From the NCBI GenBank assembly GCA_021432655.1, contig MU271180.1, forward strand, positions 161,183 to 225,182: a stretch of DNA of 64,000 nucleotides, written 5' to 3'. The DNA is from Atractiella rhizophila. Taxonomy: Eukaryota. Every line of letters begins with the position of its first letter. Within the stretch, counting starts at the first letter, position 1. The position numbers and the translations under genes are program-made. The notes beneath the pieces are model-generated. The model ran no database searches and had not been told where the DNA came from. It worked only from the letters and a program-made list of their open reading frames with translations. Shown piece by piece: positions 8,731 through 64,000 of the stretch.

Positions 8731-10457
8731 TATAAGTTAGTAGGTAGGATAAGAAGAGAGAACATGGACGAAGAAGCGGCTCTTTTATTATTCTATTTTA
8801 GCTGCGAAGGCCTGACTGACTGAACATGCTGAGCTCAACGGCGTCACTTGCCGCCTTCGGACAAAAAGTCCGAAGTGGAGGACTAGTCCCGTTACACCGT
8901 CCGTTACCACCGTGCCAGATTTGCGAATTGCAGTGAGGGCCCACCATTATTCCGACATCGCGACGACTGCTACTGGTGTGACGATGCTGATGCGGTGGGT
9001 CGGCGCGGTTAGAGAGGGCAGTAGCACCGTGCCATTGGTGCGCGAGCCGCTCAGCATGAACCTGAAAGTATCTTTAATGCCCCCGAGTCCTCATCCTCTT
9101 CGTTCGAATAGTGTACATGATTTACAGCAACAATGGATCAAGTCAAGTTAGCAAGGTAGAGAGGAGTTTCGGTGCAGCTATCTGCGTAACTGCTTTCAAA
9201 TGCTGATTCATCCTGTTGTTGAGTGAGGGTCTGGCGGAGCTAAGTCACGGGTATAGCAGCTCCTTTAACAGCGAGAACGGCGGTCCTTCACAAGCATATA
9301 CCATGACACGTTCTCCGTGGTTTGTCATGTTCTTTCAGCGTCACGATTTCCGGTCCTTAACCGTTACTTCTGCTATGAGTCGGTTTGGGACTTCGAGCCG
9401 AGCTATAAGTCCTTACATCACTCTGTAAACCAGCGGTTGACAGAGTATATCTACGTACCTTTCGGTTGCAGAAGTCCCTCTTCGTCCTGTAAGCATTGAG
9501 AGTGACGAATTCGTTATAATTACAATACTTTACTAGCTTTACCCTTGAAAGCTTCTCTGGCTAATCGTAGGATTTTGGTCAACTGCACCAAGACACCTAG
9601 CCGTGGTCACCTTGGACTGGATGGGCTCATTTCTGGGTAGGCGCGAGCTTGCTTTGCTTCGAGACAATAAACATCGTATTTTCAGACGTTGCAAAGCTAT
9701 TGGAGGTTGGTCTCATGAATAGCGCTTGCTCCACCACTTCTCCTAATCTTATGTGCCAATGGGGCATGGAGAAAACTCAACCATCAGTCCAACCATGATA
9801 ACGTATATTGCGAGGGTCATAGCATGTCGTATCCGAGTAAGGCGGCGGAATGCTGCAATTAGTCATAAAAATCGACCGTCTTGACTACTCAGGCTGATGC
9901 CAATATAAGGTGGATCGACAGTGGGGTGGGATTCTCTTTTGGCATCACGGACGGGAATAAATCCCGTTGGATGCAAGGTGTTCCAGTGGAAGGACCTCAA
10001 TGCCATCGTCCGAAAGATGTCATTGGAAGACTGCCTATGTATACATAGATAGGTACTTGGACGTTATAGTGAACTTGAAAAGTCTTACTTTCTGATCGAG
10101 TGTGATTTGGACGATTCCTGCCTTGCAATTACTAGCACCAGCAAGAATGTAGAATCAAGGAGAATGGACGAGAGGACAAGAGAGGAAACTGCGACGCGGC
10201 CCGACCCGCTCCACTTTCCACGAATAACATTGATGTCGGACGCTTGGCAATAAATCAAAACAAACATCGCCACAGATTTGGTTTGGCAAAGATGAGAGCA
10301 ATGCTCATAGACACACATTCTTATTCTTGTTTCCAGATGTTTAGACTGTATGCTCTTGCAAGAGCCAAACCAAAGATTTTGTCAAGACAATAAAACAGTA
10401 AAATGCAATCAGATTGTGAGCTAACTCACTTTTGTGTTTCCATCACTGCAACATCAA

Positions 10458-11311: not shown

Positions 11312-13061
11312 TATAAGTTAGTAGGTAGGATAAGAAGAGAGAACATGGACGAAGAAGCGGCTCTTTTATTATTCTATTTTAGCCGCGAAGCCTTGAGTGA
11401 CTGAACATGCTGAGCTCAACGGCGTCACTTGCCGCCTTCGGACAAAAAGTCCGAAGTGGAGGACTAGTCCCGTTACACCGTCCGTTACCACCGTGCCAGA
11501 TTTGCGAATTGCAGTGAGGGCCCACCATTATTCCGACATCGCGACAACTGCTACTGGTGTGACGATGCTGATGCGGTGGGTCGGCGCGGTTAGAGAGGGC
11601 AGTAGCACCGTGCCATTGGTGCGCGAGCCGCTCAGCATGAACCTGAAAGTATCTTTAATGCCCCCGAGTCCTCATCCTCTTCGTTCGAATAGTGTACATG
11701 ATTTACAGCAACAATGGATCAAGTCAAGTTAGCAGGGTAGAGAGGAGTTTCGGTGAAGCTATCTGCGTAACTGCTTTCAAATGCTGATTCATCCTGTTGT
11801 TGGGTGGGGGTTGTGCTACGATCCACACAGTCTCGCGGAGCTAAGTCACGGGTATAGCAGCTCCTTTAACAGCGAGAACGGCGGTCCTTCACAAGCATAT
11901 ACCATGACACGTTCTCCGTGGTTTGTCATGTTCTTTCAGCGTCACGATTTCCGGTCCTTAACCGTTACTTCTGCTATGCGTCGGTTTGGGGCTTCGAGCC
12001 GAGCTATAAGTCCTTACATCACTCTGTAAACCAGCGGTTGACAGAGTATATCTACGTACCTTTCGGTTGCAGAAGTCCCTCTTCGTTCTGTAGGCATGGA
12101 GAGTGACGAATTCGTTATAATTACAATACTTTACTAGCTTTACCCTTGAAAGCTTCTCTGGCTAATGGTAGGATTTTTGGTCAACTGCACCACAGAACCT
12201 AGCCGTGGTCATCTTGGACTGGATGGACTCATTTCTGGGTAGGCGCGAGCTTGCTTTGCTTCGGGATAATAAAGATCGTATTTCAGACGTTGCAAAGGTA
12301 TTGGAGTTTGGTCTCATGAATATACGCTTGCTCCGCCACTTCTCCTGATCTCATATGTTAATGGGACATGGAGAAGACTCAACCATCAGTCCAACCATGA
12401 TAACGTATATTGTGACGGTCATAGCATATCGTGTCCGAGTAAGGCGGCGGAATGCTGCAATTAGTCATAAAAATCGACCGTCTTGACTACTCAGGCTGAT
12501 GCCAATATAAGGTGGATCGACAGTGGGGTGGGATTCTCTTTTGGCATCACGGACGGGAATAAATCCCGTTGGATGCAAGGTGTTCCAGTGGAAGGACCTC
12601 AATGCCATCGTCCGAAAGATGTCATTGGAAGACTGCCTATGTATACATAGATAGGTACTTGGACGTTATAGTGAACTTGAAAAGTCTTACTTTCTGATCG
12701 AGTGTGATTTGGACGATTCCTGCCTTGCAATTACTAGCACCAGCAAGAATGTAGAATCAAGGAGAATGGACGAGAGGACAAGAGAGGAAACTGCGACGCG
12801 GCCCGACCCGCTCCACTTTCCACGAATAACATTGATGTCGGACGCTTGGCAATAAATCAAAACAAACATCGCCACAGATTTGGTTTGGTCAAAGATTCAG
12901 AGCAATGCTCATAGACACACATTCTTATTCTTGTTTCCAGATGTTTAGACTGTATGCTCTTGCAAGAGCCAAACCAAAGATTTTGTCAAGACAATAAAAC
13001 AGTAAAATGCAATCAGATTGTGAGCTAACTCACTTTTGTGTTTCCATCACTGCAACATCAA

Positions 13062-51200: not shown

Positions 51201-53280
51201 AGTTGTTGGAAAGAGGCAGGAAGTATCTCCAGGTCCGTCTCCATGTTTACTCCCTCCTATGCGATTTCCAGCTCAATGTTGCTGTTGTGGCCCTGTAGTT
51301 CTGCCAGCCGACCCATATCGAGTATGAAGGTCCACTGGTGAGAGTGGGCACAAATGGCGCTTACAAAGTCATGGTCACTGGACGTGGTATGTTGGATATC
51401 AAAACCTTGAGAGCGACGAGGCCAAACGAGGTACGCAACGACTTTGTCATCCGACCACTCATCTGCCTTCTTCGTACTGACAGGGCTGTTTATTAGGATT
51501 ATTGGAATTTGGTCGAGTTTGACTCGGAAGGAGAGAGCGCGAGCTTCTTTCAGGACACCAGCTCCATGTTCGATAGTTTGGAGGAAGCGGAGAGGGAGAA
51601 GGAAATCATCACCCTTCCCCCGTGGCATTATGGTTACTGTTTTTACCTTTCCGTATGCTTTCTTCTCCTGCACCAGTGGTCGAAGAGTAATAATGAATGC
51701 CGAATGTGTGCCGTAAAGTGTTGGGGAAGGTTCTTGATTGACTTCATACAGCTGGTCGTTTATGATAAGACCCTGATAGATGATCTTTTGATGGATGAAG
51801 ACAGCAAGGTTTGCCGCATCTGCTCTCCTTTCCGCCTATTTTGTCTATGTTTGACACATCGATCTACAGCGCGTTCTCATGAATGTGACGCGGGCGAGCA
51901 CACAAGGCGTGGACCTCAAGTTCGGCTTCGAAGGCGTGCGAGTCTTGCTACACGGGGTACGTCCATACTCCTATATCATGATACATCCCTGAGGTTTTCT
52001 ATGTGTTCGATGTAGCCATCAGGCAGCGGAAAGACTTTCAGCGCGCTCGCTATTGCGGAACATCTCGAACGTCCCCTGCAGAGGATCCCCTTGACTGAGA
52101 TGGCCGCGAACGCATCGAATCAGGAGGCTCTCGTCGAGGTCTGCCATTTAACTTATCAATTTGTTTGGCGTTGACTGACCCGCTTCAATAGGGCGTGGTC
52201 GAGCTCGCATCCGTTTGGAATTCGGTCATCTTGCTTGAAGGCGCAGACACGTATTTCGAAGCACGGAGTGAGAGAGATACCTATCGTAATACGGCAGTCG
52301 CTGTTCTACTTGACTTGTTGGATGCGTTCAAGGGTGTTTTGGTCCGTCTCACATATTGATCCTGCTGAAAGCGATAGTGATGTACAGAGCAGTTTATGAC
52401 GTCCACGAGGCTGAGAAAGTAAGTGATCTCCTCCCCTCCGGCGAGACCTGAATGCTAACTGCAATCAGCTACGACGAAGCGCTCATCAGTCGTGTTTCGC
52501 TGGCTGTCAAATACCCCGCTCTCAATCGCTCCAAACGAGAAACGATCCTTCGATCCGTACGAGCCTTACCTTAACTCTCACTCCTTCCTAACAGTAGTGT
52601 TTCAGTTGTTACATAAAGCTGGAGCAAAGGTGCAAGAAGCCGAAGTCATCCTGCCGAAATCGCTTGCTCGCCTCAAGCCTCACATGATCCAAAGAACTCT
52701 AAGCGAGAATCAGGTGACGACTTTACCCGACGGGCACCTCATACCTCCTCTTCATCTCCGTAGACAAGGCCACCATGGGGAAGCCACGACGCATAGTCTT
52801 CCTGGTTCGCCGCCGAAGGAGAAAGCGAGGTTGTTGTCAGAATCGATCACCTTCCAGGATATCAAGTCTTGGGCATCGAAGCCAATCAATGGTCGAATGA
52901 TAAACGAGATAGTTAGAACAGCTAAATTGCTCGCGACTGCCGAAGGACAAAGTCTGCGATCGACTCATGTCGAAACGGTCCTCAATCTCAGTGAGCCTTC
53001 TCTTTCAACTTGCGAACAAATAGAAGTTGATGTAAACGCAGCTCTAGGATTCCATGACGATTATAGTGCGGTTGACGAAGAAGGGTTTGTCTCAGTCTAC
53101 TTCGTTGACAGATTCTTTACTAAAATCTGATTTTCAGGTCATACATTGATGAACGAAACGAAAGATGGAACTCGAAGGTGAGTTTCCTTAGCCGCTCTCA
53201 TTTCCGGACTAAAGACAAATAATTGATTGTTTTGGTAATCCAGTTGCCACTATACAGTTGAACGGGTTGACCTGAGAATC
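48292..53280 (+). CDS. Fungal AAA+ ATPase with N-terminal hydrophobic anchor, many exons; 5' part internally duplicated; 3' end approximate
   Basis: Spliced Walker A LLHG|PSGSGKT, AIAEHLERPL, VILLEGADTYFEARS, DEALISRV and INGRMINEIVRTA. Confidence 0.75.
48423..50693. repeat. 1142-bp-period tandem duplication with an A16 linker (49552-49567)
   Basis: 48423-49551 matches 49565-50693 with scattered SNPs. Confidence 0.9.
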
Positions 53281-54195
53281 AGTTTTCACTTTTTTTGGCT
53301 TTACTCCTTTACCGTATCATCTTATCTTAGACTGGACTACAAACCTAGCTCTTTAGAGCTGCTTCTCCCTTTAGTCGTTTATATCCTGCTCTAATTCAAG
53401 TGGTTTCATTGTCGGTTTCCGTGCTACTAGTCTGTTGCTTCATTCCACTAATTAGCTGCCCATACGTGACCTTTATCTTACATTATACGTACTACTTCGT
53501 GTCCATAAGCCCATTTTGTACATAGACATCGTCTCGCATTTGCACTGGGAACTATATCTACATCATCTTCATATTCCCATATCGCGGTTGCATAACCTAA
53601 GGCTCAAGACAGAAGTCACCTTCTCCTGCTGTCACTTAAGCCTTGAGCACTGCTCTCTACCTTGCTCTACAGCACCTCTCACCATGTTACACCGTACGTT
53701 AGTAGTGATGGAGGAAGGACAATGTAGAATGGGATGATCCTAATTTTCCGAGGGAGACCATACATGATTGAGACTGGAACCTGAACAACTGAGCGGATGC
53801 TACGATGTTGTAATGTCAAAGGCATGTTTAATCAACAAAGGGAGCTGTTGCTGTTAGCTCCCAACCAAACGCACGCACCTCTCTGGGGTAGTCTGAGGAT
53901 CCGAGGATTGTTAAGTAACTATGGCTTTGCACGTTACGATGCAAAGTAGGATTTCCAAAGGTAAGAGAAAGCTAGATCCGTTTGTTCGAGGTCATGAAGC
54001 AGGTTTATCGCTCATAGTGATAAAGAGGTCGACGTATGGATATGGTCACACATGGGCCCCAGGTTGACGAATGTCTGAATTAAGCAACGGACGGCCAGGA
54101 GCTCAAGATGCAGTGTATGATAAAAAGCTTCAATTTCAGCCTCTCGAGCTCGATGAGGTCGAGGAGTCTCACAATGACTGTAAAGAAAGAGTGAC

Positions 54196-58484: not shown

Positions 58485-58612
58485 TTGCCATTCCACGCCT
58501 GCAGTCTCACTTTCGCTCAGGTACTCCGTACGCGCCTGCCCAGTTTCAACACCGTGTCCGCATTCCTGTGACTAGTTGTGCCAGAAGTCGCGAAGAAGAA
58601 GAAGAAGGAAGG

Positions 58613-60352
58613 ATGACGGTCGTGCTGGACTCTCCCAACCTCGAACGGCTCTGGGCTCTCCTCTCCGAACTCTCAGCCCAGCTGAGCGCGAACAAGGAGC
58701 AGTGTGTCGCCTTGCAACGGCAGGCTGAAGAGTTGAAGGTCTCTTTTCCCTCCTACCCCTGTTCCTGTCCCTTCCTTGCTTACAACTTGTGTGTGTGGAC
58801 AATAGGCCCAGGCCGTACATACCAATACTGGCTTCGCCCTCAAGCGGTTCAACGTCGATATCACCCAGGAACGGTTCGAGAGCGAACTGGAGAGGTCGAA
58901 CGCTCAGCTGACGGTCGAGAATCAGCAGTTGCATTATGAGAATCGACAGCTGAACGCTCTGTTGAAGGATTATGAGGGGACGTTGGAGAGCGTCATGGGA
59001 AGGTTTAGAGGACTTGCGGTGCGTTTTTATTCTTCGGTTTGGAAGGATGGAGGACTACATCGGAGGAATGTATGTATGGTGGAGGAGGTTGCGCCTGTTC
59101 CCTTCTTCCGCATTTCTACGACCTCCTGTTCATTGCATGACGTTGAAAGCCCATTTCGATTCTTGGGCGAGCACTAGCAAGTTTCAATGTGTTTTTTCCT
59201 TCATGGAACGAGGGTATCGAGAGACCAAAGGATTCTTTCGTCGAGTTGGAGAACGAGCATCCGGAAAATATTTCTGCAATCCTCACTCAAACTGTGCTCG
59301 ATATTTGACCCAAAGTGCGTACTCGAGCTGCTTAGAAGCGGAGCAGCCTAGCCTGGGGACAGAAGTCGGGCCATTAGAGTAGAGATGGAGACTGCGCAAC
59401 AGGAAGCTGGTGTGTTGCCCTAGTCCATCGTTTTCTTCTCCCCTTCATTTATGCCCTGCCCCTCTTCATGAGAAAGTAAAGGAGGCAGAGGAGAGGAAGG
59501 AATACGCTGTTCGCGCTCCTCGTCCTAGTTGCTGGAGCTCCGAGCATGATTGCCTCTATCTGTCTCGCAGCCCTTGTCCTAGCTCCTGGGAGGCGAAGGA
59601 AGATCGACCGTTGGGATGACGGTGCCAGGTAGTTACCATTACTAGTTGAAATAATGCTGGTGAGGAGCCACGAACAACAAGTGCTCCTGATTCCTTTTCC
59701 CCGTAAACCTGTGCATGAAGCTAGCATTCCTTTCCCAGTTGATTTTAAATGAAAGTCGCGTCTCCTTTGTTGTTCAATGGCACATGTGAGAGAACGATAA
59801 TTATCCAAACCAGTGGATTAGAGGTTGGAAAAAGACAATGTGAAGTAGAATTTTGAAGGAGTTTTTTAACGAAGAACTGACAAAGTTTGAACAACATGAA
59901 ATGGTGCTGATACGTTCCTCTAGCATTCGACGCAGCAACATGAACTTGCACTTCACCGCCATTACGAATCACTTCTCCTTAATTACATGCAGCAACAAGC
60001 CTCGCCCACTTCCCCCTACAACTCCCAATTCGAACACGAACGAGAACCTTCCAAAGAACAAAACCAGCCTAACGGCTTCTACACCTCCCCGTCTTCTTCA
60101 CAAATTTACGATTCGCCGGCGTCGGCACCGTCCGCTCAACAGCTCCAGCAATCCAATTTAGAGCGGAGAGGATCGACGGCATCCGTTTCTGGACTCCCGC
60201 CTGAGATGGAGCGATCGTTGGACCGTCTCTCGACTTTGCTGAGGAAAACGATGCGGTCGTTGAACGACGAGGAATTCGAAGCGGAAGACGACGAACCCCT
60301 GTCTCCGATCACGTCTCCAATCCAAGCACCGACTTCGCCTCAACGCGCAAAG
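58613..60352 (+). CDS. SIKE/FGFR1OP2-like coiled-coil protein (putative STRIPAK subunit), normally oriented part; exons 58613-58738, 58806-59018, 59924-~60352
   Basis: LERLWALLSELSAQL, GFALKRFNVDI..FESELER, ENRQLNALLKDYEGTLESVMGRFR (SIKE-like) and QQHELALHRHYESLL. GT-AG introns keep the frame. Confidence 0.75.
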
Positions 60353-62019
60353 ACCGCCTTGAGCGCTTATTTCTACAACCGTATCCTTTGTAGCGCTACC
60401 TATTCCAGCACTAGCAAATTGTACCGATTAAGACTGTTGTTTAGTTCCGTTCGGGGTTTTGCTTTTCTCTCGTGCGTGCGCAGTTCTGTGGAAACTTGCG
60501 CAGCTCGTGTAGCAGTTCTGCAAGTCGACTTCTTTCTCCCCTCCGGCCGGCATCTTAACATCTACTCCTGCCCTTAATCCAGTCAGAGGTACTGGAGGCT
60601 TTGTAGCGGGTGGTAAGGTCTCACGTAAAAACCTGTCCTAAAAAGACCAACTTTCTAATCCGACTCTTTCTTACTCTGCTCCTCACACAGCTTCGGTAAG
60701 GTTTAGGCAGCGTAGACGACCGCTAGGTAGCTCTAAAGCACCGCCAACCAGGAAGGTTTCGAGGGAGGTTTGTAACTTGACGAAATGCACGAGGAGGTTG
60801 GAAAAGTTGTGCAGGAGGCAGTCGGTATGTACGAATTACTGTGGTATGGGTGGAGGAAGGTCGAGCGTGTAGGTTTGGACGCAAGGAGACGGCCATTACC
60901 TTATACTTGCTTTATCTTAAAGGACCTGGGTCAACCCGAACTTGAGCCTTGGGAACGGCTGTTGTAGGGTAGGGAAGTTGTAGGCAAATCCAGGTCAAAT
61001 TTAAACACTAATCCCAAACCCTGCTTAACGCTTCCTTCCTCGTATCACCTGGTACCGCACCAAACATCTACGCCTACTACCGAGCGACTTCCGTTGCTCT
61101 ACAACCCCCTCGACCGCGCCCTTGAACTCTCCCTTCACAAAAACCTCCGCCCAAGGACTCAAGCTCTGGCTGACGGATGGAGGGTCCACTTCACGGTGCG
61201 ACCTAGCACTAGTTTCTACAACTCTTTAGGCTAAACAAGGAGCGAGCGAAAGCGTTTGGAACGCTACTAGACACGCTGAAGAAACTTCACCAGAAGCTCC
61301 GCAAAACCAAAAGGGACTTTCACGGGTGGTGCGTATGATAATTGGGTTCTCATTACAAATAGAGGTCGACATAGTTAGTTGTCTCAGGTCTGTTTTGTCG
61401 CTCCAGAGCGGGGCTCTCACATCCGTCGCAAAGCACGATTAACCCACAAGAGCACGCTTGGTCGTAAGAGTTCTACAGAGACTTAAGATTACGGTCGCTA
61501 TACAAGCTCATGCGGAAGTGTCCTCCCAGCTAGAGTACCACCTGGTTCTAAGGCAGGTCGAGACTTCTTAGGAACCAGCTGTCTAAGAGACTGTTGACGT
61601 AAGCACATGGTGGAACCGTCATAGACCTGAAAAGGAACGCGTGCTGGATCTGGCACAGAAGTAAGTACCACGAGTTAGTTGACACTTAGTGAGTGCGCTA
61701 TGTCGAGTAGGTAGGTTCAAAATTAGCTCAAGAGTAGGAAGGTCAGGCGACGTAATATGCAACAATCGAGCTCACCGTCAAGCTGGAGTCCATACAATTA
61801 CAAACCGGCATCTAGGAGGTTGTGGTGTTGCCCACTAAGGTTCAGCTCAAAAAGTGGATCACCGTCCAACGCGACGTTGCCAAACTTCAAACCCCTGTGG
61901 CAAGAACTTCAACGGAGAACAACTATAAAAACGAAACACAAAACTTAGCTCAGCCCTCACCGTCCACCACCGCCCCTAGGAGAGAAGTAACGTCAGAAGA
62001 AACAGAAGGAGAAGCAGTA
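60350..62019. CDS. FunK1 kinase N-terminal and catalytic part, readable only in mirror orientation (62019 down to 60350); contains apparent frameshifts; start uncertain
   Basis: Mirror translation gives QLARNAAYTLGARPRCFVW, SITGRGTQVW, VIKHVW and LIHRDVSYANIFIRE, with a GTGAGT..TAG intron. Confidence 0.85.
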
Positions 62020-62760
62020 GATCTCCTCTCCGCTCAGTTACGTCCTCTGACCTACTAATTATAATGCTACACGCGACAGGGTCAGTAAACTGAGCTTTCT
62101 AGTTTACGGTACTATAGGACGGTACTTCGTAGTGGGAGAAGAGAGGAGACGTCCAACAGGAGGTCGTGTGAGATAAGGACGCCCTTGCTGAAAGTAGTAA
62201 GGCAAAAAAGACGACGGAGTCCCATGTCCGTTAAACGCTCTATTGAGGTGAAGCGCTGAGTAGAGGAAGGTTTCAGCTGTTGGCTTTTGGAAATAGGGGG
62301 AGGACTAGGGTTTGATGAGAGGTGTCGCGTTTGTGGTTGCGTTAGGAAATGGAGGCAGTACAACGAAAGACTCAGCGTAAGCGTAACTGCATCACCGTCG
62401 TCCAACTCGACATGTCCGCGCGTAAAAACTGCGAGAAGTGGAACCACTCCTCCAGGAAACGACTAGTAAGAGTAGTGTCTGACACGCTTCACTCACCTAT
62501 TATAAACCATTAAAATATTGGAACTAATTTGTTGGAAGTCGTCAAGGCTGAGACTCCATTGCTCAGTAATGTAAGTTCAACACGCACCACTCCCCTTGCC
62601 TTCTCCCTCTACTACAACCGAACAACACTACACCCTAAGAGTCCAAATCGTACTGCCTCATGACAAGTGTGAGCCCTGGTAGCTTTGCCTCCCTTTACAA
62701 ACACTTCTTGTTTGCTCTTACTTACTCTGTTTTTGAGTACTGTGCGTAAGGTTTGAGTAG

Positions 62761-63309
62761 AGTGAGCAGAAGTAGGAATTACTCCGGGTAGAGGTTGAGG
62801 CCAAGGTGGAGGGCTAGGGATTTGTATTGTAGTAGCTCGAGGTAGCGGTAGAGGCCGAAGTGCTTTACCCCTAATAGGTTGTGGTCGCCCGACGGGTTGA
62901 ACCGGACTGAAAGAAAGTTTACGCCGAAGCGAGAGGGGTTCGACTTAGGAGGGAAGGTGGGTGAAGGAAGGCGAAGGTGACCCAGGTTTAGGTTTGGATT
63001 TCTTCTCCACTGCCCGCTGCAGGAGAGACGGACGCGAACCCCTCCCCTGGTTAGGAGAGGTCGCGAGCCACCTCCTGAGCTTCCGCCCGGTGAATTTCTC
63101 CCACTGCCACGACCTCCCTCCTCCAGTAGTAAACTTTGCAGGCAGAGCTAGGGGTTGTCGGAAGCGTCGAGGGATAAGAGGAAAAGGTTGGACACGGAGA
63201 GCGAGAGAGCGAGGTTTCGCGACAGCATAAAGCAGTTATGCGGTCAGCTCGGCTACATGGGGTTGACTCGGACTAAGTCCAAAACATAGCTTGCCTGCAA
63301 ACATTTCCA
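62761..63309. CDS. C-terminal ~182 aa of the SIKE-like protein, readable only in mirror orientation (63309 down to 62761)
   Basis: Mirror translation TFTNVRSIQNLNQAQLGYIG..YDSALERESERHRLEKENRELRRLLGI...LIKDEDE* is uninterrupted and in frame with ...SPQRA at 60349. Confidence 0.85.
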
Positions 63310-63596
63310 NNNNNNNNNNNNNNNNNNNNNNNNNNNNNNNNNNNNNNNNNNNNNNNNNNNNNNNNNNNNNNNNNNNNNNNNNNNNNNNNNNNNNNNNNNN
63401 NNNNNNNNNNNNNNNNNNNNNNNNNNNNNNNNNNNNNNNNNNNNNNNNNNNNNNNNNNNNNNNNNNNNNNNNNNNNNNNNNNNNNNNNNNNNNNNNNNNN
63501 NNNNNNNNNNNNNNNNNNNNNNNNNNNNNNNNNNNNNNNNNNNNNNNNNNNNNNNNNNNNNNNNNNNNNNNNNNNNNNNNNNNNNNNNNNNNNNNN
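63310..63596. other. Assembly gap (N run)
   Basis: Run of N characters. Confidence 0.99.
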
Positions 63597-63598
63597 CG

Positions 63599-64000
63599 TA
63601 CGAGCAGTCGGTTATGGATGACATCGAGTCCGTAATCTACTGTGTTATCTACTTTTTCTGCAATTTCTATCCGGGCACTGAAGGACGGCTCGTGAGGCGA
63701 GATTGGAGCCGCAAGCCGGACACACCGACAGGAGAAGGGACTGGAAGGACCTTCAGTGGTTCCAAGGAACTGGAACAGAATGCCGAGGCGGATGAACGAT
63801 CCTCGTCACATCACAGCGTCAAATCCAGGAAGGAACGATCCTCAACCCTCCACGGCGTCAAATCTGCAAAGGATCGATACTCGACACTTCGGAGCACCAA
63901 ATCTGCAAAGGAAAAATCCTCAACAATTCAAAGCGTCAAATTCGTTCCACAGAACGGTGACTATCCGCTCCAACTGTGGTTGACTTTGGAAAGTGCCTTC
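63599..64000 (+). CDS. C-terminal lobe of the FunK1 kinase (partial, runs off the window)
   Basis: YEQSVMDDIESVIYCVIYFFC is a subdomain IX-like DDxES motif. The frame is open to the window end. Confidence 0.75.

Follow-up and report, generated by a model that had tools for sequence, protein, structure and literature searches.

A Gap-Adjacent Block in the Atractiella rhizophila Genome Assembly Is Very Probably a Reversed, Uncomplemented String That Interrupts a SIKE-Like Gene and a Predicted FunK1 Kinase Gene

Introduction

How can a segment of about 3 kb in a fungal genome be without a recognizable gene in all six reading frames and give parts of two genes when its letters are read in the opposite direction on the same strand? 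This question is raised by a locus near the end of a 64,000-nucleotide (nt) window of Atractiella rhizophila contig MU271180.1 (assembly GCA_021432655.1, contig positions 161,183–225,182); all coordinates below are those of the window. From left to right, the locus comprises the 5′ part of a SIKE-like gene (58613–60357, plus strand), a block of 2,952 nt (60358–63309), a gap of 287 N (63310–63596), and a further piece of a gene for a predicted FunK1 kinase, which runs off the window end (63599–64000, plus strand). No strand is assigned to the gap or to features within the block. An initial annotation, made from the letters of the sequence, had described the block as mirror-reversed and had preferred a computational error as the explanation. 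Our analysis led to the same view: read contigs contradict the block as written at its left junction, both flanking genes are repaired when it is read backwards, and the tail of the corresponding public protein is nonsense. With a probability of about 0.97, the block 60358–63309 is an artefact that software introduced into the deposited assembly, in which real genomic sequence is present as a reversed, uncomplemented string, the true order being 63309 down to 60358 on the plus strand.

Results

Homology Searches in Both Readings

In the following, "backwards" means that the string is read from 63309 downwards on the same strand without complementing. Known proteins and their homologs were compared with this reversed string by tblastn, and the block as deposited was searched in six frames. 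For the deposited block, a search with five proteins gave a single match, which was that of P0001, the protein model of the SIKE-like gene derived from this very assembly, to itself, and the next-best E-values were 0.064 to 0.5. A set of 149 SIKE homologs, found with the normal N-terminal part of the gene, was likewise searched against the deposited block, and none matched it (0/149). The absence of a recognizable gene in six frames, with which the initial annotation had started, was thereby borne out by both searches. The minus-strand frames, which correspond to the reverse complement of the block, were also without any match, and a biological inversion was ruled out on these grounds.

Read backwards, the block gave matches to both gene families. 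Fifty of the 149 SIKE homologs matched it with a best E-value of 1.4e-8, and the best 40 rows of these matches lay at backwards positions 22–186 in frame 1. Residues 4–481 of P0002, a FunK1 paralog of A. rhizophila whose annotation on this same contig (316,639 bp) is in normal orientation, aligned to the backwards block with E-values of 2e-111 and 4e-85. When the whole 64-kb window was read backwards, 34 of the 154 queries gave high-scoring segment pairs (HSPs, E ≤ 1e-3), and all 39 HSPs fell within the block and none outside, which excludes chance as the source of the backwards homology. The window read normally gave 236 HSPs outside the block, and the sole HSP overlapping it was that of P0001. 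No DNA-level paralog of the block is present within the window, as the backwards block had no blastn match in the native window.

The orientation of the block was also assessed with an alignment-free measure, termed k-mer polarity, which is the log ratio of the frequency of a 5-mer to that of its reversed 5-mer. It was trained on both strands of the rest of the window and calculated in 600-nt windows. Left of the block, the mean was +50.1 (n = 598, standard deviation 27.6, minimum −17.1). Inside the block, including the non-coding spacer between the two genes, the mean was −65.1 and the maximum −46.5 (n = 24), so that all 24 values were below the minimum of the 598 values to the left. Nowhere else in the window did the polarity approach that of the block. 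The lowest polarity outside it, down to −17, was seen at 9001–9700, 11501–12400, and 52901–53900; these regions probably reflect compositional noise and not mirrored blocks.

Read Contigs and the Boundaries of the Block

Contigs from four public runs (X1–X4) were compared with positions 58600–64000. One contig of X1 and one of X3 follow the assembly to position 60357 and then leave it; the next 30 letters of both are ACCTTTACAAACGTCCCGTTCGATACAAAA. From 63309 downwards, the block starts with ACCTTTACAAACGTCCGTTCGATACAAAAC, which by eye equals ACCTTTACAAACGTCCCGTTCGATACAAAA except that the contigs have one C more in a C run; judged by the read contigs, the assembly lacks one C in this run, about 16 nt from the 63309 end of the block. 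The X3 contig extends 255 letters past 60357. Read support had been named at the outset as a test of the mirrored reading, and the X1 and X3 contigs contradict the left junction as written and follow the backwards reading. At the other side of the locus, a 20-letter loose end of an X1 contig before 63599 reads MTKDAA by eye, which is the sequence found in P0002 directly before YEQSVMDD. Judged by two GT..AG joints in the upstream part of the SIKE-like gene, X3 and X4 look like RNA, although a look-up of sequencing runs had listed none with RNA. Read cover was absent from the bins spanning 60410–63486 in all four runs and present in the bins on either side in X1, X2, and X3; we did not count this as evidence.

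A second X1 contig departs from the assembly at 60354 into a diverged version of the backwards sequence, with about 5 of 27 letters changed as judged by eye; a second haplotype or a close paralog in the sample may account for it.

The left end of the block was placed at 60358 by the read contigs and by the alignment of P0002 to the backwards reading, which ends at IREF, native position 60358, with no meaningful alignment beyond. The start of 60350 given in the initial annotation is 8 nt too early, as the bases 60350–60357 are genuine forward sequence outside the mirrored block. There is neither a gap nor an N at the left junction 60357/60358. At its other end the block adjoins an N gap, as had been stated before; a scan of the window placed this gap at 63310–63596 and found no other. 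Its expected content is about 59 kinase residues (P0002 residues 482–540).

The SIKE-Like Gene and Its Public Protein

The 5′ part of the SIKE-like gene (58613–60357) is in normal orientation according to the tblastn match of P0001, spliced contigs, and contigs fitting to 60357. Its exons lie at about 58613–58736, 58804–59017, and 59923–60357 on the plus strand, and the spliced X3 and X4 contigs skip 58737–58803 and 59018–59922, both with GT..AG ends. The intron at 59018–59922 is 905 nt in length, which is long for a fungus, and is supported by the splicing in X3 and X4. P0006, a model of 155 amino acids (aa), runs into this intron past residue 113.

The C-terminal part of the gene lies in the block at 62761–63309 and is read downwards from 63309. 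Here, backwards frame 1 runs uninterrupted through 182 codons (TFTNV...ALERESERHRLEKENRELRRLLGI...DEDE) up to a stop codon at native positions 62763–62761, in agreement with the 182 stop-free codons counted initially. The position of the ALERESERHRLEKENRELRRLLGI motif in the homologs is downstream of the N-terminal domain, as it is in the backwards reading. The frame is also kept across the in-frame join that had been proposed at 60349, partly by luck: the join was seen because the 8 genuine bases and the one missing C add up to 9. A plain flip of 60358–63309 leads to a stop at residue 135.

P0001 scored 20.1 bits (E = 6.8e-4) against the SIKE family PF05769, which is below the gathering cut-off of 24.3 bits, and 12 of 12 tested homologs passed with 24.7–37.6 bits. 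We use the label "SIKE-like" because P0001 is under the cut-off but a relative of family members that pass it. The native flanking pieces 59987–60349 and 63599–64000 gave 0 families in a Pfam search.

At NCBI, P0001 is the A. rhizophila protein BT69DRAFT_1345076 (330 aa), which is 100% identical to the normal part of the gene. Its C-terminus is the exact native translation of 60350–60574. Seventy-five residues follow PTSPQRA, with the first 8 nt genuine, and the false tail comprises 67 residues derived from mirrored DNA. Since the public protein carries the native translation of the block, the error is located in the deposited assembly. As a consequence, the conserved C-terminal motif is missing from BT69DRAFT_1345076, the initial ~480 residues of the predicted FunK1 kinase are invisible to any six-frame search, and the gene set is short of one kinase from an expanded family. 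Both genes had been regarded as lost to annotation. This holds for the part of the kinase within the block, for which no model was seen, whereas the SIKE-like gene is annotated, with a false C-terminus.

The Predicted FunK1 Kinase Gene

The two genes are separated by a mirrored spacer (62020–62760), in which k-mer polarity is negative throughout and no protein match was found in either reading. The first ~480 residues of the predicted FunK1 (Pkinase_fungal) kinase are encoded at 60358–62019, with an ATG at 62019–62017 that is read downwards. The motifs GRGT, VIKHVW, and HRDVSYANIF, from which a FunK1 kinase had been proposed, were all found in the backwards reading, in line with the P0002 alignment described above. 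Beyond the gap, the sequence YEQSVMDDIES and the following part of the kinase (63599–64000) are in normal orientation, as had been noted for the DDIES stretch, and match P0002 residues 541–674 and 1185–1318 with 80–82% identity. As P0002 residues 4–481 are found in the backwards block and residues 541–674 after the gap, colinearity holds across the gap. The HRD catalytic-loop motif of the backwards reading and the DDIES stretch from 63599 onwards thus stand in the right order; together, an HRD catalytic-loop motif and a DDxES stretch are what we take to be the defining motifs of FunK1 kinases. On P0002, PF17667 (Pkinase_fungal) scored 124 bits over residues 430–557 (cut-off 24.1), from which it follows that the domain extends from the block across the gap into the right flank. 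The link of the kinase to FunK1 is indirect and is made by way of P0002, to which the aligned pieces are 57–90% identical.

Inspection of the junctions in three frames revealed six frame changes in the kinase part of the block. Two of them are canonical introns, present in the backwards reading only, at 61695–61647 (GTGAGT...TAG, 49 nt) and 60478–60432 (GTGCGT...CAG, 47 nt). The other four are one-base frameshifts relative to P0002, located near 61465, 60979, 60610, and 60540; three of these lie in homopolymers (a T run with one base too few, and a G run and a C run with one base too many each). In the kinase part, the indel-type frameshifts mentioned in the initial annotation number four, the two remaining frame changes being GT..AG introns. 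With the missing C at the 63309 end, which is judged against the reads and also lies in a homopolymer, the block holds five one-base indels.

P0002 itself (1,427 aa) holds two tandem FunK1 copies, of which residues 4–482 and 636–1126 align to the block; residues 541–674 and 1185–1318 both align to 63599–64000. P0002 is probably a fusion of two neighboring paralogs produced by annotation. The paralogs P0003, P0004, and P0005 on other Atractiella contigs lack their N-termini, and the points of truncation recur: P0004 begins at MDDIES, like the piece after the gap, and P0003 and P0005 begin at the position corresponding to about residue 420 of P0002. Upstream of these three models there may be gaps or faulty fills of a similar kind.

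Discussion

The results describe a string error, which would consist of a reversal without complementing or, equivalently, of complementing without reversal of the opposite strand. In the true locus, the left contig would end at 60357 and be followed by the letters of the block in the order 63309 to 60358, by the gap, and by the sequence from 63597 onwards. The most likely route appears to be a long-read gap fill, to which the adjacency of the gap, the gapless left junction, and the five one-base indels point. A partial fill with poorly polished long-read sequence would have extended the left contig into a gap that measured about 3.2 kb, its string would have been mishandled when the orientation was set, and the gap would have been reduced to 287 N. 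That the one-base frameshifts lie mostly in homopolymer runs suggests that such a fill was left unpolished. JGI pipelines of the period combined short-read assembly with a long-read gap filler, but the results point to no particular program.

The deposited record is all that speaks for a real mirror segment, i.e., for the alternative that the order as written exists in the organism and that the genes are recognized backwards for some biological reason. We consider the chance of this to be practically nil. The read contigs abandon the as-written sequence past 60357 and follow the backwards reading, and splice signals, codons, and k-mer polarity are all backwards, indicating that the string was reversed and not the molecule; to our knowledge, strand polarity offers no route to a pure reversal. 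A reversal in the local copy of the window, planted there or caused by corruption, with the public assembly unaffected, is hardly more credible, as BT69DRAFT_1345076 in the NCBI nr database carries the exact translation of 60350–60574 as written.

More thought has to be given to the same artefact at another step, in which a separate contig was misoriented in scaffolding, in the building of the AGP (A Golden Path) file, or in submission. Orientation is set per component at these steps, and the block adjoins a scaffold gap, both of which would fit. However, the junction 60357/60358 contains no gap and no N, and the read contigs cross the join in the true order. A gapless join that is crossed by contigs implies that block and left contig form one continuous sequence in the genome, as an extension would. 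The one-base indels also mark the block off from its left flank, where X3 record 22 (59927–60357), the only left-flank contig examined, shows 0 gaps; small indels do occur further left, at 59043–59881. For these reasons we regard a misoriented separate contig as unlikely.

Several points weigh against the explanation that we prefer, a software artefact acting on real sequence. The comparison with the read contigs covers 30 letters per loose end, so that the reads speak directly for the backwards order at the left junction only. The four frameshifts in the kinase were judged against a paralog of 65–70% identity and could be real, in which case the kinase would be a pseudogene. A software bug predicts recurrence at other gaps, and the scope here is one gap. 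In the literature, we found neither an account of the assembly of this genome nor a report of reversed, uncomplemented blocks in genome assemblies.

Whether many partial gap fills were reversed, in this assembly and in others from the same pipeline, is a related matter, and we consider such a systematic fault possible but rather doubtful. The truncated models P0003, P0004, and P0005 are no more than a hint of trouble at other kinase copies. If the fault were systematic, public fungal genomes would hold many unreadable gap-side blocks that hide or corrupt genes, and a k-mer scan would find them. A search for this fault across entire assemblies could be made cheaply with k-mer polarity. The finding has no bearing on biology, as the DNA of the organism is ordinary at this locus; its value lies in database curation.

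The block can be compared with three known kinds of rearranged sequence. In a biological inversion, the gene order is also flipped relative to the flanks, but the result is a reverse complement, and the reverse-complement frames of this block proved empty. Orientation misassemblies in draft genomes share with the block an orientation-handling error beside a scaffold gap and a setting in a repeated gene family, which is difficult to assemble from short reads. They differ in that they also give the reverse complement, with genes readable on the other strand, whereas neither strand of this block is readable. A third parallel would be that of whole ribosomal RNA or internal transcribed spacer (ITS) database entries that were submitted reversed and uncomplemented, although our literature searches did not find any. 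Such entries would have undergone an identical string operation and would likewise have lost all homology. They would, however, be short and reversed as a whole, whereas the block described here is an internal segment of 2,952 nt in an annotated contig of 316,639 bp, where it corrupts gene models.

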